Shown here: positions 433 through 61,000 of the stretch, piece by piece
Layout of the letters: each line of letters starts with the position of its first letter
Numbering within the stretch: position 1 is the first letter of the stretch
Assembly (NCBI RefSeq): GCF_006345805.1
Contig: NC_043010.1
Span: forward strand, 59,210,001-59,274,000
DNA from: Octopus sinensis
Lineage: Eukaryota
Length of the DNA: 64,000 bases
Direction: 5' to 3'
Translations under genes and position numbers: made by a program
The notes under the pieces: generated by a model
Told to the model about the DNA's origin: nothing
The model's database searches: none
What the model saw: the letters and a program-made list of their open reading frames with translations, nothing else

Positions 433-3351
433 ATGTTCCTGTCGTTGTCCATTGTATTATCAATGGTCCAGTGTGTGCTGACCATAGACCTTACCTACCA
501 TGTGGAAGAAGAAAGAAGTCCAGGAACATATGTAGCAGACATTGCTGCCGATTCTAAACTTTTAGACAATGTTAAACCATCTGACCAACATTTGATAACA
601 TTCAGTCAATTCAAACGAAAGGTGGCACAGTTATTTAACATCACCAAAACAGGTAAACTGTACACTGCTCAGACACTGGATGCAGAAGATCTCTGCACAT
701 TCAACAAAGAATGTTCCAGAACTATGAAGGTTGTTGTCAATAAAGGAACCAGTGTTTCAAAAATATTAAAAATCAAGATAGTAATAGAAGATATCAATGA
801 CCATGAACCAAAATTTCCTATGAGAAATGTCAATATGCTGTTCAGTGAAGACATTGGTAAAGGTGCAAAAAGATCAATACCCAATGCTATGGACAAAGAT
901 GTAGGATTTCAAAATTCCTTAATACAATATAAATTAAAATCAAAGAATGGAGAACCATTCTCTCTATCAGTGTCTAAAAGAGCTGATGGTATTTCTTCGC
1001 TTAATATAGTTTTAAAAGAATCATTAGACAGAGAAATCAAAGATACGTATTTATTACAGGTCATAGCTAAAGATGGAGGTTCACCAGCAAAACAAGGGAT
1101 TTTGAATATAAATATTTCTGTAATAGATGTTAATGATAACCCACCAGAGTTTTCTAAACCTCTATACAATATATCCATACAAAGTACACATCATAAGTCT
1201 AAACCCATCATTGTTTTGTCTGTAACAGATGCTGATTCTGGTGAAAATGGTAAAATTTTTTTTCATTTCAGTCCCAAGACATCAGATCTAGCAAAAAGCT
1301 ATTTTCAGTTAAATGAAACCAACGGGAATATTTTATTAAGCAAATATACTAGTCTGAGTAAAAAAAAAACCTACGAATTGTTTATAGAAGCCAGAGATGG
1401 GGGCACTCCACCCTTTAGTTCCATAGCAACAGTTCTGGTAAATGTTATCAACCAACACAATAATCCTCCATCTATTGATATTGATTATGTTTCTGCAATC
1501 AATGACAACACAGCTACCATTTCTGAAAACATCAAAGTCGGTAGTTTCATTGCTTATGTGATGGTCACTGACAATGATGTGGGACAAAATGGAGAGGTCA
1601 GCTGTGATATCAAACATGATACGTTCAAACTACAGTCAATGGGATCTAAAGAATATAAAATCATTCTAAACAAACCAGTGGACAGAGAAACACAAGGACA
1701 CTATAACATTCCTGTCTCTTGTCAAGATAAAGGATTACCTCCTCTTAAAAGTGTTAAAAGCCTCTCTATCCAAGTGACTGACATCAACGATGTACAACCA
1801 CAGTTTACCAAAGATACATTCCAATTCCTCACCTACGAAAACAAAGATAAAGACTTCCCTATTGGTTTTGTCAATGCCACTGACCCTGATCTTGGATCTG
1901 CTGGACAACTCACATATTCTCTGCTGCGTAAAGAAAAATCCAATCTCCCATTTCTCATCACCAGTTATGGCTTCATTTCAGCGACCATGTCATTGGACAG
2001 AGAGAAACAAGATGTGTATAAGTTTGAGGTTTTTGTCAAAGATAATGGAAGCCCATCTCTGAATGACACAGCGAATGTTGTTGTTGAGATTCTAGATCAA
2101 AATGACAATGCTCCGTATTTTACATATCCTAGTAGTGACCCTTACACGCTAAATGTGCAGTACCATCCGCAGAGTAAGAGTGACATCACAGTTTTGAGAG
2201 CCTCTGATGGGGACAGTGGAAACAATGCTTTCCTCAGATATGCAATCATACAAGGAAATGATAAACAGTTGTTTAGTATGAACTCACACAGTGGTGCTTT
2301 ATCCTTCTCCAGACAAGTTTATCTAAATGATGCTGGAAGTTATGGGCTGGTGTTTGTTGTGAAGGACAGTGGTAGTCCAGTTCAGTCGTCAACAACTAGT
2401 GTCACTTTGGTATTGGCTGTTAGTAACGAGACGTCACCAATGTCGAAAAGTGGACCTTTACAATCTTCAGGTCGGGTCCATATGACATGGGTTATTATCA
2501 TTGTATCATCAGCAGTAATAATATCAGTGGCTATTGTTGTTTCTATAACGCTGTGTATTATGAAATGTATTAAACACAGAGATAACACAGCTGCTTCCAC
2601 AAAGAATACAGCCTACCAAGGTAGAGCAGAGATGAAACAATTGTTGTACCAGACTAACACTTCTGTTGCTATGTCGAGGAATGCAGAAGAGATGGTGAAG
2701 CGGAATATCTATTCTGAGAGATCCAAGAGTGAATGTTATGCAGAAGGTCAGCTACAGAACAAATATGAATCTTCAGTTCAGTCGAGAACTTTACCAAAAC
2801 CTACCCCAGTAAGTGGAAACATTAATATTTTCTCTCTGTAAAAGTGAACAATGAAATCTCTTTGAATATGTTTTAACTTCAATAATACATTCCAATATTA
2901 AATTGTTCTCTTTCCATGTTGATTGTAACTTCCATTGTTTGGTGTCTTCTCACATTTCTTTATCGTTTGTTTGTCAACAGAAATACTGTCAACCTGTTGT
3001 GGTGACATCAAGTGATGATGCTGTGGAAGATAATGCTACTATGGTTTGTAACTATACATCAGATACAATGTCATCCAAGAGAAGTGGTAGACATGGAGAC
3101 TTGAAACATTACGAAGAAATACCAGGAGTATCAGGTTAGCAACTGCATTAGCAATACTTTGCAAATAATGTTAAGAAGTACAAATTGCAGTACACTGTAA
3201 AAATAATGTCACCATTTTTTCCATGTATTAACATATTGATATCTTGGCAAAATCTATTTTCATTTGAATTTCAGAGCAAAGTTTATATAAAAACAACGAT
3301 GCATCTACTTCGAAAGATTCCAGTGAAGAAACACCAGTGAAACATGTCTAA
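433..3351 (+). CDS. PCDH: Protocadherin gene 1 (6 EC + TM + cytoplasmic tail), join(433..2808,2981..3134,3275..3351), ~868 aa
   Basis: Signal peptide; cadherin motifs (DINDHEP, LDRE, DxD, DGG, DxNDNxP); EC1 C-X5-C (CTFNKEC); TM VIIIVSSAVIISVAIVVSITLCI. Acceptor ttttag|381, donor CCA|gtaagt 2809 (phase 0), acceptor caacag|2981, donor G|gttagc 3135 (phase 1), acceptor ttcag|3275, frame open to TAA 3351 (...SSEETPVKHV*). Same layout in all paralogs. Confidence 0.93.
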
Positions 3352-11823: not shown

Positions 11824-14800
11824 ATGCTCCTGTCATTGACCTTTGTATTGTCGCTGGTCCACTGTGTCCTGACCATAGACCTCACCTACCATGTGGAAGA
11901 AGAAAGAAGTCCTGGAACATATGTAGCAGACATTGCTGCCGATTCTAAACTTTTAGACAATGTTAAACCATCTGACCAACATTTGATAACATTCAGTCAA
12001 TTCAAACGAAAGGTGGCACAGTTATTTAACATCACCAAAACAGGTAAACTGTACACTGCTCAGACACTGGATGCAGAAGATCTCTGCACATTCAACAAAG
12101 AATGTTCTAGAACTATGAAAGTTATTATAAAGAAAGTGGCAACATTCACAAAAATATTAAAAGTCAAAATAGTAATAGAAGATATTAATGACCATGAACC
12201 AGAGTTTCCAGAAAAACAAATCACTCTACATTTTGAAGAAGGTGATGGGAGAGGAATGAAAAAATCAATTCCAAATGCCATAGACAAAGATGTGAGTTAT
12301 CAAAATTCTTTCATTGAATATAAACTTAAAAAATCTGATGATTCATTTTCCCTGACAGTTTCTAAAAGAGCTGATGGTATTTCATCATTAAAGATTGTTT
12401 TAAAAGAAAAATTAGACCGAGAGATAAAAGAGAAATACAATTTAGAAGTTATTGCTAAAGATGGAGGTTCTCCATCTAAACAGAGTGTGTTAAATGTTGA
12501 GATTGTTGTTGAAGATGAGAATGATAATCCACCTGTATTTTCAAAACCCCTTTATAATATTTCCATTAGAACTACACACGATAAGACAAAACCCATTCTT
12601 ACTTTGTCAGTGACAGACAAAGATATTGGATCCAACAGTAAAATTACTTTCCATTTCAGCCCCAAAACTTCTGATTTGGCAAAGAAATATTTCGAATTGG
12701 ATAAAAAGATTGGCAAAGTATTTTTATCTAGAATTTCTAGTTTGAATGAAAAAAATACTTTTGAATTATTTATAGAGGCCAGAGATGGAGGTAAGCCACC
12801 ACTCAGTTCCATAGCAACTGTTCTGATAAATGTTATCAACCAACACAACAATCCTCCATCTATTGATATTGATTATGTTAATGCAATCAATGACAATACA
12901 GGTACCATCTCTGAAAAGATCAAAGTCGGTAGTTTCCTTGCTTATGTGATGGTCACTGACAATGATGTGGGACAAAATGGAGAGGTCAGCTGTGATATCA
13001 AACATGATACATTCAAACTACAGTCAATGGGATCTAAAGAATATAAAATCATTCTAAACAAACCAGTGGACAGAGAAACACAAGGACACTATAACATTCC
13101 TGTCTCCTGTCAAGATAAAGGATTACCTCCTCTTAAAAGTGTTAAAAGCCTCTCTATCCAAGTGACTGACATCAACGATGTACAACCACAGTTTACCAAA
13201 GATACATTCCAATTCCTCACCTACGAAAACAAAGATAAAGACTTCCCTATTGGTTTTGTCAATGCCACGGACCCTGATCTTGGATCTGCTGGACAACTCA
13301 CGTATTCTCTGCTGCGTAAAGAAAAATCCAATCTCCCATTTCTCATCACCAGTTATGGCTTCATTTCAGCGACCATGTCATTGGACAGAGAGAAACAAGA
13401 TGTGTATAAGTTTGAGGTTTTTGTCAAAGACAATGGAAGCCCATCTCTGAATGACACAGCGAATGTTGTTGTTGAGATTCTAGATCAAAATGACAATGCT
13501 CCGTATTTTACATATCCTAGTAGTGACCCTTACACGCTAAATGTGCAGTACCATCCGCAGAGTAAGAGTGACATCACAGTTTTGAGAGCCTCTGATGGGG
13601 ACAGTGGAAACAATGCTTTCCTCAGATATGCAATCATACAAGGAAATGCTAAACAGTTGTTTAGTATGAACTCACACAGTGGTGCTTTATCCTTCTCCAG
13701 ACAAGTTTATCTAAATGATGCTGGAAGTTATGGGCTGGTGTTTGTTGTGAAGGACAGTGGTAGTCCAGTTCAGTCGTCAACAACTAGTGTCACTTTGGTA
13801 TTGGCTGTTAGTAACGAGACATCACCAATGTCGAAGAGTGGACCTTTACAATCTTCAGGTCGGGTCCATATGACATGGGTTATTATCATTGTATCATCAG
13901 CAGTAATAATATCAGTGGCTATTGTTGTTTCTATAACGCTGTGTATTATGAAATGTATTAAACACAGAGATAACACAGCTGCTGCCACAAAGAATACAGC
14001 CTACCAAGGTAGAGCAGAGATGAAACAATTGTTGTACCAGACTAACACTTCTGTTGCTATGTCGAGGAATGCAGAAGAGATGGTGAAGCGGAATATCTAT
14101 TCTGAGAGATCCAAGAGTGAATGTTATGCAGAAGGTCAGCTACAGAACAAATATGAATCTTCAGTTCAGTCGAGAACTTTACCAAAACCTACCCCAGTAA
14201 GTGGAAACATTACATTTTCTCTCTGTAAAAGTGAACAATGAAATCTCTTTGAATATGTTTTAACTTCAATAATACATTCCAATATTAAATTGTTCTCTTT
14301 CCATGTTGATTGTAACTTCCATTGTTTGGTGTCTTCTCACATTTCTTTATCGTTTGTTTGTCAACAGAAATACTGTCAACCTGTTGTGGTGACATCAAGT
14401 GATGATGCTGTGGAAGATAATGCTACTATGGTTTGTAACTATACATCAGATACAATGTCGTCCAAGAGAAGTGGTAGACAAGGAGACTTGAAACATTACG
14501 AAGAAATACCAGGAGTATCAGGTTAGCAACTTCATTTGCTATTTTCTACCTGGATATCACCTCAAAGATAGACCTGTATTATGAAGAATTACTAAAATAT
14601 ATATAAATTTGTTAATGAATAAGTATTACATTTATATTCCAGATTCTCATGCATGCAAGAAGTCATTCTTAAACTTATATTTTACATCATTTCCACATTA
14701 TTCAGTTTGCCTGGTGACATATTCCAGAACATGATTATCTTATTAGTTCCATTTGAAATGTTTTTTTATCAATTTGATTCTAATATTATGATATGAAGAA

Positions 14801-14947
14801 CTCAAAAACATATTTTCTATTGTTATTCCAAATCAAAATTAAAAAAAGAAAAAAACATAATATTTTTGTATCTAAATTCCAGATCAAAGTATATATAAAA
14901 ACAATGGCACCTCTACATCAAAAGATTCCAGTGAAGAACACCAGTGA
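11824..14947 (+). CDS. PCDH: Protocadherin gene 2, join(11824..14196,14368..14521,14883..14947), ~863 aa; most divergent EC2-EC3; last exon has a 1-nt deletion
   Basis: 805 aa ORF with the same motifs; acceptor ctttag|11768; donor gtaagt 14197; paralogous small exons. Last exon reads DQSIYKNNGTSTSKDSSEEHQ* because gaagaaacacca is gaagaacacca here. Confidence 0.92.
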
Positions 14948-23335: not shown

Positions 23336-26300
23336 ATGTTACTGCCATTGACCTTTGTATTGTCGCTGGTCCACTGTGTCCTGACCATAGACCTTACCTA
23401 CCATGTGGAAGAAGAGAGAAGTCCAGGAACATATGTAGCAGACATTGCTGCCGATTCTAAACTTTTAGACAATGTTAAACCATCTGACCAACATTTGATA
23501 ACATTCAGTCAATTCAAACGAAAGGTGGCACAGTTATTTAATATCACCAAAACAGGTAAACTGTACACTGCTCAGACACTGGATGCAGAAGATCTCTGCA
23601 CATTCAACAAAGAATGTTCCAGAACTGTGAAAGTTATTATAAAGAAAATGGAATCATTCACAAAAATATTAAAAGTCAAAATTGTAATAGAAGATATCAA
23701 TGACCATGAACCAGAGTTTCCCAAAAGACAAATTTCTCTAAAATTTTCAGAAACGGATGGAAAGGGCACAAAACAATCAATACCAAATGCCATGGACAAA
23801 GATGTTGGATTTCAAAATTCCTTAATACAATATAAATTAAAATCAAAGAATGGCGAACCATTCTCTCTGTCAGTGTCTAAAAGAGCTGATGGTATTTCTT
23901 CTCTGAAAATAGTTTTAAAAGAATCCTTAGACAGAGAAATCAAGGATACATATTTATTACAGGTCATAGCTAAAGATGGAGGGTCACCAGCAAAACAAGG
24001 TATTCTAAATATAAATATCTCTGTGACAGATGTTAATGACAACCCACCTGTATTTTCTAAACCTCTATATAATATATCCATACAAAGCGCACATCACAAG
24101 TCTAAACCCATCATTGTTTTGTCTGTGACTGATGCTGATTCTGGGGAAAATGGTAAAATTACTTTCCACTTCAGTCCAAAGACATCAGATATAGCCAAAA
24201 GCTATTTTCAATTAAATGAAAGCAATGGGGACATTTTTGTAGGTAAATATTCTAATTTGGGTAAAAGGAAAACATATGATCTATTTATAGAGGCCAGAGA
24301 TGGGGGCAGCCCTCCTCTCAGTTCCATAGCAACTGTTCTGGTAAATGTTATCAACCAACACAATAATCCTCCCTCTATGGATATTGATTATGTCTCTGCA
24401 CTCAATTATAACACAGGTACCATCTCTGAAAACATCAAAGTTGGTAGTTTCATTGCTTATGTGATGGTCACTGACAATGATGTGGGACAAAATGGAGAGG
24501 TCAGCTGTGATATCAAACATGATACATTCAAACTACAGTCAATGGGATCTAAAGAATATAAAATCATTCTAAACAAACCAGTGGACAGAGAAACACAAGG
24601 ACACTATAACATTCCTGTCTCCTGTCAAGATAAAGGATTACCTCCTCTCAAAAGTGTTAAAAGCCTCTCTATCCAAGTGACTGACATCAACGATGTACAA
24701 CCACAGTTTACCAAAGATACATTCCAATTCCTCACCTACGAAAACAAAGATAAAGACTTCCCTATTGGTTTTGTCAATGCCACTGACCCTGATCTTGGAT
24801 CTGCTGGACAACTCACATATTCTCTGCTGCGTAAAGAAAAATCCAATCTCCCATTTCTCATCACCAGTTATGGCTTCATTTCAGCGACCATGTCATTGGA
24901 CAGAGAGAAACAAGATGTGTATAAGTTTGAGGTTTTTGTCAAAGATAATGGAAGCCCATCTCTGAATGACACAGCGAATGTTGTTGTTGAGATTCTAGAT
25001 CAAAATGACAATGCTCCGTATTTTACATATCCTAGTAGTGACCCTTACACGCTAAATGTGCAGTACCATCCGCAGAGTAAGAGTGACATCACAGTTTTGA
25101 GAGCGTCTGATGGGGACAGTGGAAACAATGCTTTCCTCAGATATGCAATCAAACAAGGAAATGGTAAACAGTTGTTTAGTATGAACTCACACAGTGGTGC
25201 TTTATCCTTCTCCAGACAAGTTTATCTAAATGATGCTGGAAGTTATGAGCTGGTGTTTGTTGTGAAGGACAGTGGTAGTCCAGTTCAGTCGTCAACAACT
25301 AGTGTCACTTTGGTATTGGCTGTTAGTAACGAGACATCACCAATGTCGAAGAGTGGACCTTTACAATCTTCAGGTCGGGTCCATATGACATGGGTTATTA
25401 TCATTGTATCATCAGCAGTAATAATATCAGTGGCTATTGTTGTTTCTATAACGCTGTGTATTATGAAATGTATTAAACACAGAGATAACACAGCTGCTTC
25501 CACAAAGAATACAGCCTACCAAGGTAGAGCAGAGATGAAACAATTGTTGTACCAGACTAACACTTCTGTTGCTATGTCGCGGAATGCAGAAGAGATGGTG
25601 AAGCGGAATATCTATTCTGAGAGATCCAAGAGTGAATGTTATGCAGAAGGTCAGCTACAGAACAAATATGAATCTTCAGTTCAGTCGAGAACTTTACCAA
25701 AACCTACCCCAGTAAGTGGAAACATTACATTTTCTCTCTGTAAAAGTGAACAATGAAATCTCTTTGAATATGTTTTAACTTCAATAATACATTCCAATAT
25801 TAAATTGTTCTCTATCAATGTTGATTGTAACTTCCATTGTTTGGTGTCTTCTCACATTTCTTTATCGTTTGTTTGTCAACAGAAATACTGTCAACCTGTT
25901 GTGGTGACATCAAGTGATGATGCTGTGGAAGATAATGCTACTATGGTTTGTAACTATACATCAGATACAATGTCATCCAAGAGAAGTGGTAGACAAGGAA
26001 ACTTGAAACATTACGAAGAAATACCAGGAGTATCAGGTTAATAACTACATTGACAATATTTTAAATCTTTTATCTCGTGAATGATCAACATTTTATTAGC
26101 AACATTTTCTGACAAAGAATTCATTTACTTTTTTGCTTAAGTGATTTTTACTGACTTTTTGTGATTATAACCTCCAGAATTGTTATTACATCTTTCTCAT
26201 TAAGCAATTAATTAAGGAAATCTGCAAGTCTGTGATTTTGTAATGCCTGTTTCCAATCTAAATTCCAGATCAAAATTTATATAAGAATAATGATGCAACT

Positions 26301-31681: not shown

Positions 31682-34600
31682 ATGTTCCTGTCGTTGTCCA
31701 TTCTATTGTCAATGGTCCACTGTGTCCTGACCATAGACCTTACCTACCATGTGGAAGAAGAGAGAAGTCCAGGAACATATGTAGCAGACATTGCTGCCGA
31801 TTCTAAACTTTTAGACAATGTTAAACCATCTGACCAACATTTGATAACATTCAGTCAATTCAAACGAAAGGTGGCACAGTTATTTAATATCACCAAAACA
31901 GGTAAACTTTACACTGCTCAGACACTGGATGCAGAAGATCTCTGCACGTTCAACAAAGAATGTTCCAGAACTATGAAGGTTGTTGTCAATAAAGGAACCA
32001 GTGTTTCAAAAATATTAAAAATCAAAATAGTAATAGAGGACATCAATGACCATCACCCTGAATTTCCAAAAGCTCAAATTTCTTTGAAGTTCTCTGAGAC
32101 AGATGGAAAAGGCACAAAACAATCTCTGCCAAATGCTATGGACAAAGATGTAGGATTCGAAAATTCATTAATACAATATAAATTAAAATCAAAGAATGGA
32201 GAACCATTCTCTCTGTCAGTGTCTAAAAGAGCGGATGGTATTTCTTCTCTTAATATGGTTTTAAAAGAATCATTAGATAGAGAAATCAAAGATACATATT
32301 TATTACAGGTCATAGCTAAAGATGGAGGTTCACCAGCAAAACAAGGGACTTTGAATATAAATATCTCTGTAACAGATGAAAATGACAACCTACCAGAGTT
32401 TTCTAAACCTTTATATAATATATCCATACAAAGCACACATCACAAGTCTAAACCCATCATTGTTTTATCTGTAACGGATGCTGATTCTGGTGAAAATGGT
32501 AAAATTACTTTCCATTTCAGTCCAAAGACATCAGATCTAGCAAAAAGCTATTTTCAGTTAAATGAAACTAGTGGAAGCATTTTATTAAGCAAATATACTA
32601 GTCTAAGTAAAAAAAAAACTTATGAATTGTTTATAGAAGCGAGGGATGGGGGCACTCCACCCTTTAGTTCTATAGCAACAGTTCTGGTAAATATTATCAA
32701 TCAACACAACAATCCTCCATCTATTGATATTGATTATGTTTCTGCAATCAATGACAACACAGCTACCATCTCTGAAAACATCAAAGTCGGTAGTTTCATT
32801 GCTTATGTGATGGTCACTGACAATGATGTGGGACAAAATGGAGAGGTCAGCTGTGATATCAAACATGATACGTTCAAACTACAGTCAATGGGATCTAAAG
32901 AATATAAAATCATTCTAAACAAACCAGTGGACAGAGAAACACAAGGACACTATAACATTCCTGTCTCCTGTCAAGATAAAGGATTACCTCCTCTTAAAAG
33001 TGTTAAAAGCCTCTCTATCCAAGTGACTGACATCAACGATGTACAACCACAGTTCACCAAAGATACATTCCAATTCCTCACCTACGAAAACAAAGATAAA
33101 GACTTCCCTATTGGTTTTGTCAATGCCACTGACCCTGATCTTGGATCTGCTGGACAACTCACGTATTCTCTGCTGCGTAAAGAAAAATCCAATCTCCCAT
33201 TTCTCATCACCAGTTATGGCTTCATTTCAGCGACCATGTCATTGGACAGAGAGAAACAAGATGTGTATAAGTTTGAGGTTTTTGTCAAAGACAATGGAAG
33301 CCCATCTCTGAATGACACAGCGAATGTTGTTGTTGAGATTCTAGATCAAAATGACAATGCTCCGTATTTTACATATCCTAGTAGTGACCCTTACACGCTA
33401 AATGTGCAGTACCATCCGCAGAGTAAGAGTGACATCACAGTTTTGAGAGCCTCTGATGGGGACAGTGGAAACAATGCTTTCCTCAGATATGCAATCATAC
33501 AAGGAAATGATAAACAGTTGTTTAGTATGAACTCACACAGTGGTGCTTTATCCTTCTCCAGACAAGTTTATCTAAATGATGCTGGAAGTTATGAGCTGGT
33601 GTTTGTTGTGAAGGACAGTGGTAGTCCAGTTCAGTCGTCAACAACTAGTGTCACTTTGGTATTGGCTGTTAGTAATGAGACATCACCAATGTCGAAGAGT
33701 GGACCTTTACAATCTTCAGGTCGGGTCCATATGACATGGGTTATTATCATTGTATCATCAGCAGTAATAATATCAGTGGCTATTGTTGTTTCTATAACGC
33801 TGTGTATTATGAAATGTATTAAACACAGAGATAACACAGCTGCTGCCACAAAGAATACAGCCTACCAAGGTAGAGCAGAGATGAAACAATTGTTGTACCA
33901 GACTAACACTTCTGTTGCTATGTCGAGGAATGCAGAAGAGATGGTGAAGCGGAATATCTATTCTGAGAGATCCAAGAGTGAATGTTATGCAGAAGGTCAG
34001 CTACAGAACAAATATGAATCTTCAGTTCAGTCGAGAACTTTACCAAAACCTACCCCAGTAAGTGGAAACATTAATATTTTCTCTCTGTAAAAGTGAACAA
34101 TGAAATCTCTTTGAATATGTTTTAACTTCAATAATACATTCCAATATTAAATTGTTCTCTATCCATGTTGATTGTAACTTCCATTGTTTGGTGTCTTCTC
34201 ACATTTCTTTATCGTTTGTTTGTCAACAGAAATACTGTCAACCTGTTGTGGTGACATCAAGTGATGATGCTGTGGAAGATAATGCTACTATGGTTTGTAA
34301 CTATACATCAGATACAATGTCATCCAAGAGAAGTGGTAGACATGGAGACTTGAAACATTATGAAGAAATACCAGGAGTATCAGGTTAATAACTATTATGT
34401 TGTTTTTTTTTTTATCTTGATATCACCTCAAATATATAATTATCTTTAGAACTATTTCCAAACTATACAGAGTTGTGTGTGAGTACAAATTACTAATTAC
34501 ATTTCCGTTTCTGATCCTCATTCATGTAAGAATTCAATTTTGAAACTTTGCTTTCTCATCCCTTCCAATAATTTATTTTGCATAGTTACATATTCAAAAA

Positions 34601-41203: not shown

Positions 41204-44200
41204 ATGTTACTACCGTTGTCTACTTTATTGTCACTGGTCCACTGTGTGCTGACCATAGACCTCACCTACCACGTGGAAGAAGAGAGAAGTCCAGGAACCT
41301 ATGTAGCAGACATTGCTGCCGATTCTAAACTTTTAGACAATGTTAAACCATCTGACCAACATTTGATAACATTCAGTCAATTCAAACGAAAGGTGGCACA
41401 GTTATTTAATATCACCAAAACAGGTAAACTGTACACTGCTCAGACACTGGATGCAGAAGATCTCTGCACATTCAACAAAGAATGTTCCAGAACTGTGAAA
41501 GTTATTATAAAGAAAATGGAATCATTCACAAAAATATTAAAAGTCAAAATAATAATAGAAGATATTAATGACCATGAACCGGAGTTTCTCATAAAGAATG
41601 TTAATATACAGTTTGGTGAAAATGATCGTAAAGGTTCTAAAGTATCAATACCAAATGCCATAGACAAAGATGTTGGATTTCAAAATTCCTTAATACAATA
41701 TAAATTAAAATCAAAGAATGGAGAACCATTCTCTCTGTCAGTGTCTAAAAGAGCTGATGGTATTTCTTCACTTAACATAGTTTTAAAAGAATCATTGGAC
41801 AGAGAAATCAAAGATACATATTTATTACAGGTGATAGCTAAAGATGGAGGGTCACCAGCAAAACAAGGTATTTTGAATATAAATATTTCTGTAATAGATG
41901 TTAATGACAACCCACCAGAGTTTTCTAAACCTCTGTACAATATGTCTATACAAAGTGCACATCACAAGTCTAAACCCATCATTGTTTTATCTGTAACGGA
42001 TGCTGATTCAGGTGAAAATGGTAAAATTACTTTCCATTTCAGCCGAAAGACATCAGATTTAGCAAAAAGCTATTTTCAGTTAAATGAAACCAGTGGAAGC
42101 ATTTTCTTGAGTAAATACTCCAAGTTGGAAAAAAAGAAAACCTATGAATTGTTTATAGAGGCCAGAGATGGGGGTAGTCCTCCAATCAGTTCCATAGCAA
42201 CTGTTTTGGTAAATGTCATCAACCAACACAATAATCCTCCCTCTATGGATATAGATTATGTTTCTGCAGTCAATTATAACACAGGTACCATCTCTGAAAA
42301 CATCAAAGTCGGTAGTTTCATTGCTTATGTGATGGTCACTGACAATGATGTGGGACAAAATGGAGAGGTCAGCTGTGATATCAAACATGATACATTCAAA
42401 CTACAGTCAATGGGATCTAAAGAATATAAAATCATTCTAAACAAACCAGTGGACAGAGAAACACAAGGACACTATAACATTCCTGTCTCCTGTCAAGATA
42501 AAGGATTACCTCCTCTCAAAAGTGTTAAAAGCCTCTCTATCCAAGTGACTGACATCAACGATGTACAACCACAGTTTACCAAAGATACATTCCAATTCCT
42601 CACCTACGAAAACAAAGATAAAGACTTCCCTATTGGTTTTGTCAATGCCACTGACCCTGATCTTGGATCTGCTGGACAACTCACATATTCTCTGCTGCGT
42701 AAAGAAAAATCCAATCTCCCATTTCTCATCACCAGTTATGGCTTCATTTCAGCGACCATGTCATTGGACAGAGAGAAACAAGATGTGTATAAGTTTGAGG
42801 TTTTTGTCAAAGATAATGGAAGCCCATCTCTGAATGACACAGCGAATGTTGTTGTTGAGATTCTAGATCAAAATGACAATGCTCCGTATTTTACGTATCC
42901 TAGTAGTGACCCTTACACGCTAAATGTGCAGTACCATCCGCAGAGTAAGAGTGACATCACAGTTTTGAGAGCGTCTGATGGGGACAGTGGAAACAATGCT
43001 TTCCTCAGATATGCAATCAAACAAGGAAATGATAAACAGTTGTTTAGTATGAACTCACACAGTGGTGCTTTATCCTTCTCCAGACAAGTTTATCTAAATG
43101 ATGCTGGAAGTTATGGGCTGGTGTTTGTTGTGAAGGACAGTGGTAGTCCAGTTCAGTCGTCAACAACTAGTGTGACTTTGGTATTGGCTGTTAGTAACGA
43201 GACATCACCAATGTCGAAGAGTGGACCTTTACAATCTTCAGGTCGGGTCCATATGACATGGGTTATTATCATTGTATCATCAGCAGTAATAATATCAGTG
43301 GCTATTGTTGTTTCTATAACACTGTGTATTATGAAATGTATTAAACACAGAGATAACACAGCTGCTGCCACAAAGAATACAGCCTACCAAGGTAGAGCAG
43401 AGATGAAACAATTGTTGTACCAGACTAACACTTCTGTTGCTATGTCGAGGAATGCAGAAGAGATGGTGAAGCGGAATATCTATTCTGAGAGATCCAAGAG
43501 TGAATGTTATGCAGAAGGTCAGCTACAGAACAAATATGAATCTTCAGTTCAGTCGAGAACTTTACCAAAACCTACCCCAGTAAGTGGAAACATTAATATT
43601 TTCTCTCTGTAAAAGTGAACAATGAAATCTCTTTGAATATGTTTTAACTTCAATAATACATTCCAATATTAAATTGTTCTCTATCCATGTTGATTGTAAC
43701 TTCCATTGTTTGGTGTCTTCTCACATTTCTTTATCGTTTGTTTGTCAACAGAAATACTGTCAACCTGTTGTGGTGACATCAAGTGATGATGCTGTGGAAG
43801 ATAATGCTACTATGGTTTGTAACTATACATCAGATACAATGTCATCCAAGAGAAGTGGTAGACAAGGAGACTTGAAACATTATGAAGAAATACCAGGAGT
43901 ATCAGGTTAGTAACTACGTTGACAATATTTCTCTTTGACATCATTTCATAAGCAGATATTTATTCAACATTTGCTTACGGTAAATATCATTGTCATTGGT
44001 AATCCCTTACATTGTCCATTAGTTGTAACTTCTATTGACCATCCTTTATATATGTAGGGCAATGCAGAATCCAGCCCCCAGTCATAAAACAGGTGTTTAT
44101 TGCTGAGAGGAAAATGAGGCATTGTGCTCCTCACTTTGTACTGCTTTGTATCCTCACATTTATCGCTGAGCTGTTCAGTTTGTGATTGCCTTAATATTGG

Positions 44201-49693: not shown

Positions 49694-52600
49694 ATGTTAC
49701 TGTCGTTGTCTATTGCATTGTCGCTGGTCCACTGTGTCCTGACCATAGACCTTACCTACCACGTGGAAGAAGAGAGAAGTCCAGGAACCTATGTAGCAGA
49801 CATTGCTGCCGATTCTAAACTCTTAGACAATGTTAAACCATCTGACCAACATTTGATAACATTCAGTCAATTCAAACGAAAGGTGGCACAGTTATTTAAC
49901 ATCACCAAAACAGGTAAACTGTACACTGCTCAGACACTGGATGCAGAAGATCTCTGCACATTCAACAAAGAATGTTCCAGAACTATGAAGGTTGTTGTCA
50001 ATAAAGGAACCAGTGTTTCAAAAATATTAAAAATCAAAATTGTTATAGAAGACATCAATGACCATGAACCAAAATTTCCTAAGATTAAAATCAATATGCA
50101 GCTTGCAGAGGATATTTCAAAAGGTTCAAAAAGATCGTTACCAAATGCCATAGACAAGGATGTAGGATTTCAAAACTCATTAATACAATATAAATTAAAA
50201 TCAAAGAATGGAGAACTATTCTCTCTGTCAGTGTCTAAAAGAGCAGATGGTATTTCTTCTCTTAAAATAGTTTTAAAAGAATCATTAGACAGAGAAATCA
50301 AAGATACATATTTATTACAGGTCATAGCTAAAGATGGAGGGTCACCAGCAAAACAAGGAATTTTAAACATAAATATTTCCATAACAGATGTTAATGACAA
50401 CCCACCTGTATTTTCTAAACCTCTATACAATATGTCTATACAAAGTACACATCACAAATCTAAACCCATCATTGTTTTATCTGTGAGTGATGCTGATTCT
50501 GGTGAAAATGGTAAAGTTACTTTCCATTTCAGTCCAAAGACATCAGATGTAACAAAAAGCTATTTTCAGTTAAATGAAACCAGTGGAAGCATTTTATTAA
50601 GGGAATATTCAAAATTAGGGAAAAAGAAAACTTATGAATTGTTTATAGAGGCCAGAGATGGAGGTATTCCTCCTCTCAGTTCCATAGCAACTGTTCTTGT
50701 GAATGTCATCAACCAACACAACAATCCTCCTTCTATTGACATAGATTATGTTTCTACACAGAATCACAACACAGCTACCATCTCTGAAAACATCAAAGTC
50801 GGTAGTTTCATTGCTTATGTGATGGTCACTGACAATGATGTGGGACAAAATGGAGAGGTCAGCTGTGATATCAAACATGATACATTCAAACTACAGTCAA
50901 TGGGATCCAAGGAATATAAAATCATTCTAAACAAACCAGTGGACAGAGAAACACAAGGACACTATAACATTCCTGTCTCCTGTCAAGATAAAGGATTACC
51001 TCCTCTTAAAAGTGTTAAAAGCCTCTCTATCCAAGTGACTGACATCAACGATGTACAACCACAGTTTACCAAAGATACATTCCAATTCCTCACCTACGAA
51101 AACAAAGATAAAGACTTCCCTATTGGTTTTGTCAATGCCACTGACCCTGATCTTGGATCTGCTGGACAACTCACATATTCTCTGCTGCGTAAAGAAAAAT
51201 CCAATCTCCCATTTCTCATCACCAGTTATGGCTTCATTTCAGCGACCATGTCATTGGACAGAGAGAAACAAGATGTGTATAAGTTTGAGGTTTTTGTCAA
51301 AGACAATGGAAGCCCATCTCTGAATGACACAGCGAATGTTGTTGTTGAGATTCTAGATCAAAATGACAATGCTCCGTATTTTACATATCCTAGTAGTGAC
51401 CCTTACACGCTAAATGTGCAGTACCATCCGCAGAGTAAGAGTGACATCACAGTTTTGAGAGCCTCTGATGGGGACAGTGGAAACAATGCTTTCCTCAGAT
51501 ATGCAATCATACAAGGAAATGCTAAACAGTTGTTTAGTATGAACTCACACAGTGGTGCTTTATCCTTCTCCAGACAAGTTTATCTAAATGATGCTGGAAG
51601 TTATGAGCTGGTGTTTGTTGTGAAGGACAGTGGTAGTCCAGTTCAGTCGTCAACAACTAGTGTCACTTTGGTTTTGGCTGTTAGTAACGAGACATCACCA
51701 ATGTCAAAGAGTGGACCTTTACAATCTTCAGGCCGGGTCCATATGACATGGGTTATTATCATTGTATCATCAGCAGTAATAATATCAGTGGCTATTGTTG
51801 TTTCTATAACGCTGTGTATTATGAAATGTATTAAACACAGAGATAACACAGCTGCTGCCACAAAGAATACAGCCTACCAAGGTAGAGCAGAGATGAAACA
51901 ATTGTTGTACCAGACTAACACTTCTGTTGCTATGTCGAGGAATGCAGAAGAGATGGTGAAGCGGAATATCTATTCTGAGAGATCCAAGAGTGAATGTTAT
52001 GCAGAAGGTCAGCTACAGAACAAATATGAATCTTCAGTTCAGTCGAGAACTTTACCAAAACCTACCCCAGTAAGTGGAAACATTAATATTTTCTCTCTGT
52101 AAAAGTGAACAATGAAATCTCTTTGAATATGTTTTAACTTCAATAATACATTCCAATATTAAATTGTTCTCTTTCCATGTTGATTGTAACTTCCATTGTT
52201 TGGTGTCTTCTCACATTTCTTTATCGTTTGTTTGTCAACAGAAATACTGTCAACCTGTTGTGGTGACATCAAGTGATGATGCTGTGGAAGATAATGCTAC
52301 TATGGTTTGTAACTATACATCAGATACAATGTCATCCAAGAGAAGTGGTAGACAAGGAGACTTGAAACATTACGAAGAAATACCAGGAGTGTCAGGTTAG
52401 TAAATGTATTTGCTATATTTTGCTCCGAAATTGTCTGAAATGTAAATATTTATTGACAACTAAATTTAAAAGTCTATAATACTGTCCAATATTTGGTTAT
52501 TAGTTTATGTATATACATAAATGTATCCCCTTGTTATTTCAAGAACACTTTGTAGTTATTTGTTCGAGCAATATGTTTGTATCTTCCCTTTTATAATGTT

Positions 52601-58012: not shown

Positions 58013-61000
58013 ATGCTCCTGTCATTGTCCATTGTATTGTCACTGGTCCACTGTGTCCTGACCATAGACCTTACCTACCATGTGGAAGAAGAGAGAAGTC
58101 CAGGAACGTATGTAGCAGACATTGCTGCCGATTCTAAACTTTTAGACAATGTTAAACCATCTGACCAACATTTGATAACATTCAGTCAATTCAAACGAAA
58201 GGTGGCACAGTTATTTAACATCACCAAAACAGGTAAACTGTACACTGCTCAGACACTGGATGCAGAAGATCTCTGCACATTCAACAAAGAATGTTCTAGA
58301 ACTGTGAAAGTTATTATTAAGAAAATGGATAGTTTCACAAAAATATTAAAAGTCAAAATTGTAATAGAAGACATCAATGACCACGAACCAGAGTTTCCTA
58401 TAAAGAATGTGAATATACAGTTTGGTGAACATGATCGCAAAGGTTCTGACAGATCAATACCCAATGCTATGGACAAAGATGTTGGATTTCAAAATTCCTT
58501 AATACAATATAAATTAAAATCAAAGAATGGAGAACCATTCTCTCTATCAGTGTCTAAAAGAGCTGATGGTATTTCTTCTCTTAAAATAGTTTTAAAAGAA
58601 ACATTGGACAGAGAAGTCAAAGATACATATTTATTACAGGTGATAGCTAAAGATGGAGGGTCACCAGCAAAACAAGGTATTTTGAATATAAATATCTCTG
58701 TAACAGATTTGAATGACAACCCACCAGTATTTTCAAAACCTCTGTATAATGTATCCATACAAAGTACACATCATAAATCCAAACCCATCATTGTTTTGTC
58801 TGTAACAGATGCTGATTCTGGTGAAAATAGTAAAATTTCTTTCCATTTCAGTCCAAAAACATCAGATGTAACAAAAAGCTATTTTCAGTTAAATGAAACC
58901 AATGGAAACATTTTATTAAATAAATATACAAGTTTGGGGAAAAAGAAAACCTATGAATTGTTTGTAGAGGCCAGGGATGGAGGCAGCCCTCCACTCAGTT
59001 CCATTGCAACTGTTTTGGTAAATGTCATCAACCAACACAATAATCCTCCCTCTATGGATATAGATTATGTCTCTGCACTCAATTATAACACAGGTACCAT
59101 CTCTGAAAACATCAAAGTTGGTAGTTTCATTGCTTATGTGATGGTCACTGACAATGATGTGGGACAAAATGGAGAGGTCAGCTGTGATATCAAACATGAT
59201 ACATTCAAACTACAGTCAATGGGGTCTAAAGAATATAAAATCATTCTAAACAAACCAGTGGACAGAGAAACACAAGGACACTATAACATTCCTGTCTCCT
59301 GTCAAGATAAAGGATTACCTCCTCTTAAAAGTGTTAAAAGCCTCTCTATCCAAGTGACTGACATCAACGATGTACAACCACAGTTCACCAAAGATACATT
59401 CCAATTCCTCACCTACGAAAACAAAGATAAAGACTTCCCTATTGGTTTTGTCAATGCCACTGACCCTGATCTTGGATCTGCTGGACAACTCACATATTCT
59501 CTGCTGCGTAAAGAAAAATCCAATCTCCCATTTCTCATCACCAGTTATGGCTTCATTTCAGCGACCATGTCATTGGACAGAGAGAAACAAGATGTGTATA
59601 AGTTTGAGGTTTTTGTCAAAGACAATGGAAGCCCATCTCTGAATGACACAGCGAATGTTGTTGTTGAGATTCTAGATCAAAATGACAATGCTCCGTATTT
59701 TACATATCCTAGTAGTGACCCTTACACGCTAAATGTGCAGTACCATCCGCAGAGTAAGAGTGACATCACAGTTTTGAGAGCCTCTGATGGGGACAGTGGA
59801 AACAATGCTTTCCTCAGATATGCAATCATACAAGGAAATGATAAACAGTTGTTTAGTATGAACTCACACAGTGGTGCTTTATCCTTCTCCAGACAAGTTT
59901 ATCTAAATGATGCTGGAAGTTATGAGCTGGTGTTTGTTGTGAAGGACAGTGGTAGTCCAGTTCAGTCGTCAACAACTAGTGTGACTTTGGTGTTGGCTGT
60001 TAGTAACGAGACATCACCAATGTCAAAGAGTGGACCTTTACAATCTTCAGGTCGGGTCCATATGACATGGGTTATTATCATTGTATCATCAGCAGTAATA
60101 ATATCAGTGGCTATTGTTGTTTCTATAACACTGTGTATTATGAAATGTATTAAACACAGAGATAACACAGCTGCTGCCACAAAGAATACAGCCTACCAAG
60201 GTAGAGCAGAGATGAAACAATTGTTGTACCAAACTAACACTTCTGTTGCTATGTCGAGGAATGCAGAAGAGATGGTGAAGCGGAATATCTATTCTGAGAG
60301 ATCCAAGAGTGAATGTTATGCAGAAGGTCAGCTACAGAACAAATATGAATCTTCAGTTCAGTCGAGAACTTTACCAAAACCTACCCCAGTAAGTGGAAAC
60401 ATTACATTTTCTCTCTGTAAAAGTGAACAATGAAATCTCTTTGAAATGTTTTAACTTCAATAATACATTCCAATATTAAATTGTTCTCTTTCCATGTTGA
60501 TTGTAACTTCCATTGTTTGGTGTCTTCTCACATTTCTTTATCGTTTGTTTGTCAACAGAAATACTGTCAACCTGTTGTGGTGACATCAAGTGATGATGCT
60601 GTGGAAGATAATGCTACTATGGTTTGTAACTATACATCAGATACAATGTCATCCAAGAGAAGTGGTAGACAAGGAGACCTGAAACATTACGAAGAAATAC
60701 CAGGAGTTTCAGGTAAATAACTATATTGATCATGTTTTACTTTGATCTCATCTCAAATGTAAACTTTAACGTCAACTAATTTGTAATTTAGTTTGAGTAA
60801 TATCATCATCATCGTTTAACGTCCGTATTGTTTTTATACTTGGGGAAACATGAAACATTATGAAAAAATACCAGAAATATCAGGTTAGTAAGTAAATCAG
60901 TAATATTTTTGTTATTATATCATTTCAGATATAGAGATTTAATAGCAATTATTCATAGAAAATATTATATGCTCAAATAGGGTGTTTGAAAGAAATTTGG

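Follow-up and report, generated by a model that had tools for sequence, protein, structure and literature searches.

Missing EC3-side calcium ligands at the EC3-EC4 junction of clustered octopus protocadherins suggest a one-calcium hinge

Calcium ligands at described cadherin junctions

Canonical cadherin junctions take five carboxylates and one Asn from the side chains of the upstream repeat, according to the residue roles known from cadherin structures. In terms of motifs, xEx, DRE and DxNDN lie upstream of the junction, and DxD and xDx downstream (PMC5120219). The closest described departure is EC5-EC6 of PCDH15, for which an altered XEX, an absent DRE, the linker PPNNQ and near-intact downstream motifs are described; one Ca2+ is bound, at site 3, and three crystal conformations have substantially different orientations (PMC7547225). 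The EC9-EC10 junction of PCDH15 is described as Ca2+-free and L-shaped, without the upstream motifs and the downstream DxD and xDx (PMC5120219). Among mouse clustered protocadherins, Pcdh-alphaC1 is described as having an incomplete Ca2+ ligand set at EC3:EC4 (PMC8901172, PMC7339444, citing Thu et al. 2014) and as alone among the clustered isoforms in failing to aggregate cells (PMC8901172, PMC7339444).

We analysed a 64,000-nucleotide window of the Octopus sinensis genome (coordinates below are positions in this window), in which seven open frames of 808–840 codons on the + strand code for six-repeat protocadherins. They are full-gene duplicates arranged in tandem, all oriented the same way (+), and each gene is followed on its 3' side by two tail exons of its own. 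The gene 1 protein has a Pfam Cadherin_2 match at EC1 and five Cadherin stretches, a transmembrane helix and a cytoplasmic tail, and its best PDB match is a protocadherin (E 1e-85). We regard the locus as an octopod cluster of full-gene duplicates because the nearest named proteins over EC3-EC4 are those of Octopus (93–96% identity) and Argonauta (up to 89%). Coleoid clustered protocadherins are likewise described as having their six EC repeats in a single large exon, as standing in tandem as full genes with tail exons of their own, and as homogenised between neighbours (PMC9068888, PMC6339937). The alignment in the Styfhals supplement (PMC6339937) prints degenerate octopus and Lottia linkers without comment there.

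433–2808, + strand: large first exon of gene 1, with signal peptide, EC1-EC6, transmembrane helix and start of the cytoplasmic tail (Cadherin_2/Cadherin matches; tblastn with P0003, 95% identity; ORF 409–2841)
1138–1449, + strand: EC3 repeat of gene 1 (motif positions; predicted beta-sandwich, mean pLDDT 88)

The cytoplasmic exons of gene 1 lie at 2981–3133 and 3268–3348, and matching exons are found 3' of each gene. In the last exon of gene 2, 21 of the 27 codons match (14876–14938), and a weak additional piece resembling exon 2 occurs at 60844–60882.

The octopus junction between EC3 and EC4 resembles PCDH15 EC5-EC6 in its lost xEx and DRE, in the Asn at linker position 4 and in its essentially kept downstream DxD and xDx, but PCDH15 EC5-EC6 retains the site-3 Asn at linker position 3 (PMC7547225). 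PCDH15 EC5-EC6 is moreover an elastic tip-link element of an unrelated lineage, whereas the octopus hinge would lie inside the EC1-EC4 recognition unit. Upstream motifs are lost as well in PCDH15 EC9-EC10 and in Drosophila N-cadherin; EC9-EC10, however, has also lost the downstream DxD and xDx, both of which are invariant at the octopus junction (PMC5120219). The likeness to alphaC1 is one of description, and alphaC1 is a single exceptional isoform, whereas the octopus loss is the hallmark of an entire expanded clade. The antiparallel EC1-EC4 dimers of vertebrate clustered and delta-protocadherins have the same fold and domain order, with paralog divergence likewise centred on EC2-EC3, but six delta-protocadherin structures show three Ca2+ per linker and a near-linear EC1-EC4, as described in PMC7082078.

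Ligand loss in seven paralogs and across relatives

An EC3-EC4 query gave 596 matches, of which the best 120 were taken and 118 counted (the listed relatives below). Left out were P0048, a canonical Fat-like fragment with no EC1 match, and P0002, which has a degenerate linker and is misaligned downstream. In 7/7 paralogs, 0/6 of the EC3-side side-chain Ca2+ ligands of the EC3-EC4 junction are present, and the upstream xEx, DRE and DxNDN of a canonical three-Ca2+ junction are missing from all seven. The features concerned are the following.

1171–1194, + strand: end of EC3 strand A, reading ISIQSTHH in gene 1, with Ser at the xEx Glu position (codon 1183); Glu at this register in 0/118 listed relatives
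1339–1368, + strand: EC3 E-F loop, SKYTSLSKKK in the place of DRE/LDRE; the most variable segment of EC1-EC6
1450–1470, + strand: EC3-EC4 linker of gene 1, NQHNNPP in the place of DxNDNxP; position 4 is Asn, not Asp
12838–12858, + strand: degenerate EC3-EC4 linker of gene 2, as in gene 1
24353–24373, + strand: the same linker in gene 3, as in gene 1
32699–32719, + strand: the same linker in gene 4, as in gene 1
42221–42241, + strand: the same linker in gene 5, as in gene 1
50711–50731, + strand: the same linker in gene 6, as in gene 1
59030–59050, + strand: the same linker in gene 7, as in gene 1
1570–1578, + strand: EC4 DxD motif (site-3 ligands), kept in 118/118 listed relatives
1723–1731, + strand: EC4 xDx motif (site-3 ligand, Asp codon 1726), kept in 118/118 listed relatives

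Elsewhere the motifs are as expected: the DxD (1228) and xDx (1396) of EC3 itself are canonical in gene 1, and so are the EC1-2, EC2-3, EC4-5 and EC5-6 junction motifs in all seven paralogs. The preliminary description had stated that EC3 lacks its Ca2+ ligands for the EC3-EC4 junction in every paralog, while its DxD and xDGG and the other junctions are canonical. Both statements hold in all seven, the first for side-chain ligands only, as the backbone carbonyls of the linker remain. The description made no mention of the retained DxD and xDx of EC4.

Among the 118 listed relatives, none of the five EC3-side motif checks was kept in 108 and one was kept in 10. A Glu stands one position off the xEx register in 51, a D-x-E string occurs anywhere in the EC3 E-F loop in 4, and the site-3 Asn at linker position 3 is replaced by His (56), Gln (42), Arg (8), Glu (5) or Lys (4). 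At the other four junctions, each ligand position is kept in at least 107. The loss is not chance or an assembly error, because 108 of the 118 listed relatives are without the EC3-side motifs while the other junctions are kept. It is true that the seven paralogs are homogenised and so are not independent observations, which would suit an error of sequencing, pseudogenes or an accident local to a single duplicated gene. However, the open frames of 808–840 codons are accompanied by downstream exons, pN/pS is <0.5 in all regions, and the same degenerate state is found in Octopus, Argonauta and the cuttlefish Acanthosepion; this explanation is refuted by the cross-species survey, and we give it practically no weight.

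A-to-I editing is a common means of RNA recoding in coleoids and might restore the ligands in the mRNA. All seven genes have the Asn codons AAC or AAT at linker positions 1 and 4, and at 1450 and 1459 a single A-to-G change would give Asp. On the other hand, changing Ser to the xEx Glu and His to the site-3 Asn is beyond A-to-I editing, and gastropods and bivalves share the same Asn. The 40 rows listed from four sequencing runs, with 18 more beyond the listing, include no A>G at 1450 or 1459 (contigs, with an RNA source assumed, a comparison insensitive to rare editing). We consider restoration by editing very improbable. Both AAT and AAC are used among the paralogs for the Asn at position 4 (1459–1461 in gene 1), an Asn that is also found in PCDH15 EC5-EC6.

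A query over EC3-EC4 favours look-alikes, and therefore a second search was made with EC1 alone. Representatives were taken at 50% identity, and 82 full ectodomains were retained from 150 (50 fell outside 440–1300 aa, and 18 more were without full coverage or were non-protocadherin). Searches from queries in the mollusc clade returned mostly Fat, CELSR and vertebrate PCDH11X/beta, and gave 12 vertebrate controls and 10 extra rows. Trees were made without EC3. The coleoid clade is fully supported (19 rows, SH-aLRT 100) and includes Argonauta, O. bimaculoides and Acanthosepion. In the EC1-only set it has 17 members, two of them named (Argonauta, O. bimaculoides) and the others placed by the tree; 17/17 are without the DxE loop and 17/17 have Asn at linker position 4.

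A further set of 24 has a milder loss, with xEx in 23, the first linker Asp in 22, DxE in none and Asn at position 4 in all 24. Named proteins in this milder state are those of the gastropods and bivalves Patella, Lottia, Candidula, Haliotis, Gigantopelta, Solemya, Potamilus, Crassostrea, Saccostrea and Mizuhopecten, and from these motifs we infer two Ca2+ at the junction. The remaining 41 EC1 representatives are mostly canonical, with the fourth linker Asp in 36. Other proteins of Patella, Mactra and Tegillarca are canonical at EC3-EC4, as are 12/12 of the vertebrate sequences checked. The survey of relatives that the preliminary description had proposed found the loss in nearly all close cephalopod relatives checked, and a milder form in gastropods and bivalves.

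In a tree of 96 rows, all named mollusc proteins fall into one well-supported clade of 62 rows, 50 of which are without the fourth Asp; the basal fork of this clade stays open. A single, stepwise origin of the loss in molluscs is plausible from these distributions, and the history may have run from three ions to two and then to one. Octopus is described as having seven-EC protocadherin genes (PMC6339937), and we stop short of a claim for every coleoid protocadherin because the seven-EC octopus genes were not identified in the sample. The gastropod and bivalve paralogs, some partially degenerate and some canonical, are natural controls.

Two observations are added here. P0182 (910 aa, seven EC repeats) is intermediate, with xEx and the first linker Asp kept, DYD in the loop and Asn at position 4; the first tree placed it, weakly supported, as the sister of the coleoid clade, and it had no firm place in the second. 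An N-glycosylation sequon in EC3 strand A (1168–1176) lies five residues ahead of the lost xEx and is found in 114/118 listed relatives. By junction state in the 96-row set, the EC3 sequon is present in 19/21 rows with full loss, 18/33 with partial loss and 5/42 canonical rows (counts uncorrected for kinship).

The EC3 E-F loop has a variability of 2.90 bits, as against 1.18–1.44 for the same loop in EC2, EC4 and EC5. Its net charge is +4 in 6/7 paralogs, but over the 118 listed relatives it lies between -3 and +5, with a mean of +1.2. For the EC3 D-E-EF region, pN/pS is 0.33 (pooled Nei-Gojobori counts, 21 non-independent pairs), and positive selection on the loop was rejected at this resolution. 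The preliminary description had seen the loop as a basic, variable surface; it is variable indeed, but basic only in this subfamily, and a basic surface was rejected as a family trait. Once freed from ligand duty, the loop most likely drifts under relaxed constraint, and because relaxed constraint accounts for its variability, no new recognition surface is needed. The EC3 E-F loop of certain vertebrate dimers is described as touching the partner EC1 only minimally (PMC7082078).

Calcium count and the angle between EC3 and EC4

The side chains that EC3 would contribute to Ca2+ sites 1 and 2 are lost, and EC4 retains the three aspartates of site 3. A single Ca2+ is likely bound at site 3, and EC3-EC4 likely works as a flexible hinge. 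By analogy with PCDH15 EC5-EC6, a flexible junction with one Ca2+ is the reading we hold to be likely. The pattern of partial Ca2+-free linkers, in which the upstream motifs are lost and the downstream site-3 motifs are kept, is the one found at EC3-EC4. The EC4 DxD and xDx aspartates are kept in 118/118 listed relatives and 24/24 of the milder set, and the three positions in 17, 16 and 17 of the 17 coleoid members. The top of EC1 and the base of EC6, which face no junction, are without the corresponding motifs, and because these are missing there the retention in EC4 suggests a site in use. Site 3 may nevertheless be weak or empty, because its Asn at linker position 3 is replaced, unlike in PCDH15 EC5-EC6. 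The commonest missense change in PCDH19 epilepsy affects the same linker Asn. With N340S, the change at the matching Asn, PCDH19 EC3-4 melts at 40.7 C instead of 52.4 C (PMC5115871). A further point against the one-Ca2+ reading is the Glu that stands one position off the xEx register in 51 of the listed relatives.

All six EC3-side side-chain ligands are gone, the site-3 Asn included, and this would agree with the strongest form of the preliminary reading, in which the junction is wholly free of Ca2+ and held in one sharp kink, as in PCDH15 EC9-EC10 or Drosophila N-cadherin, and forces the dimer into a new geometry. The downstream DxD and xDx that such a junction would also have lost are, however, kept in every listed relative, and PCDH15 EC9-EC10 has lost its own. 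The junction is thus probably not Ca2+-free, and we regard the fixed kink as improbable. The likening to Ca2+-free linkers in the preliminary description was probably wrong on this account.

AlphaFold2 models were made from the same 118 listed relatives, with no ions and with one control junction, EC2-EC3. For EC3-EC4 the pTM was 0.54 and the rmsd to 27 listed protocadherin chains was 5.8–8.4 A; for the control, at equal pLDDT, the pTM was 0.74 and the rmsd to 35 listed chains was 2.0–4.0 A. The EC3-EC4 model lies about 7 A from the straight vertebrate EC3-EC4, which would suit a kink, but it is unlike PCDH15 EC9-EC10 too (rmsd 10.6 A), and in both comparisons its angle is of low confidence. 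Among the top 50 entries of a VIA-align comparison, no solved angle matched the model below 5.3 A rmsd. The low pTM shows that the model leaves the EC3-EC4 angle open, and it speaks neither for motion nor for a given kink. Of the kinked or flexible hinge proposed earlier, the non-rigid part is favored by the analogy with the PCDH15 linker and weakly by the prediction, while a fixed kink is not supported by the model.

Even with sites 1 and 2 gone, EC3-EC4 could also be rigid and near-straight, if one Ca2+ and a protein-protein interface made of the invariant linker Asn, the conserved EC3 G strand and EC4 strand A held it in place. The Asn at linker position 4 is invariant (118/118 listed relatives, 17/17 of the coleoid clade, 24/24 of the milder set), and the F-G strands are the most conserved part of EC3 (0.98 bits). 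Together these could form a fixed, Ca2+-independent interface. The EC1:EC4 contact positions considered below are also kept, and they need an EC3-EC4 junction compatible with the EC1-EC2 angle. Against this, PCDH15 EC5-EC6, the solved linker with this pattern, shows several orientations, and AlphaFold2 recovered the straight arrangement for EC2-EC3 and not for EC3-EC4. We consider rigidity rather unlikely; if it holds, the loss matters little for a dimer of vertebrate type.

Dimer geometry and paralog divergence

In vertebrate dimers, the C-F-G face of EC1 is described as packing with A-B-E-D of EC4, and A-B-E-D of EC2 with C-F-G of EC3, around a conserved central hydrophobic pair between the EC1 G-strand and the EC4 B-strand (PMC7082078). 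The positions of this pair are kept in the octopus proteins, as judged by alignment to PCDH10 only, and the paralogs diverge over a span that covers much of the vertebrate interface.

763–765, + strand: EC1 G-strand Ile, aligned to PCDH10 Leu88; I/V/L in 118/118 listed relatives
1546–1557, + strand: EC4 B-strand Phe (1546) and Tyr (1555), aligned to PCDH10 Val359 and Leu362; Phe in 115/118 and Tyr/Phe in 118/118 listed relatives
721–1518, + strand: span of paralog divergence, from the EC1 F-G hairpin to EC4 strand A; pS 0.27–0.58 inside as against 0.025–0.084 outside

The kept EC1:EC4 positions and the divergence over the interface span favor, indirectly, a retained head-to-tail dimer; in the consensus, EC5 too is aromatic where EC4 has its Tyr. 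The molecules would then pair through EC1:EC4 and EC2:EC3 with the one-calcium hinge kept roughly extended, and we lean slightly toward such a vertebrate-like dimer. An altered dimer geometry, which the preliminary description had taken the hinge to imply, is a tentative possibility, and weak or absent homophilic binding is quite unlikely. Mouse alphaC1, with its incomplete EC3:EC4 ligand set and its failure to aggregate cells, speaks against the vertebrate-like dimer. A prediction of the EC1-EC4 homodimer without an alignment scored 0.00 and was counted neither for nor against any of these.

Linkers that are partially Ca2+-free have been described before, and so have the protocadherin clusters of coleoids. 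No report of EC3-EC4 ligand loss in cephalopods was found in the literature searched, the key octopus papers lying outside that search. A partial Ca2+-free linker as a clade-wide trait inside EC1-EC4, milder in other molluscs, was likewise not found in the literature searched and is apparently new. Cephalopod protocadherins are widely assumed to be homophilic identity tags like those of vertebrates. A PDB search with the gene 1 protein found no structure of a cephalopod protocadherin, and a literature search found no binding study. The clade-wide loss therefore calls the identity-tag assumption into question, at the same junction as the ligand defect of the non-aggregating alphaC1 and the linker Asn of PCDH19. 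Vertebrate protocadherins keep this part of the molecule rigid for cell recognition, and its octopus counterpart is likely flexible, to judge from its motifs.

More tentatively, the whole expanded coleoid repertoire (168–288 genes per genome) might descend from a mollusc lineage that dismantled the EC3-EC4 clamp stepwise, with hinged or novel recognition as the outcome. If so, cephalopod neurons would recognize each other in one of two ways: by a hinged EC1-EC4, in which the EC1:EC4 contact, near-constant, is uncoupled from the EC2:EC3 contact, which varies, or by a dimer arrangement that has not been seen in vertebrates. The likeness to vertebrate clustered protocadherins would then be a convergence of genomes and not of structures.

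The boundary of homogenisation is sharp across the seven genes (433–60388): pS is 0.025–0.084 over strands A-E of EC1 and again from strand B of EC4 on through the tail. The pattern resembles what gene conversion would leave if it passed over the presumed specificity region. Among the paralogs, gene 2 (11824–14196) diverges most in EC2-EC3 (81% over EC1-EC4); its EC2 has a one-residue deletion and its E-F loop is non-basic.
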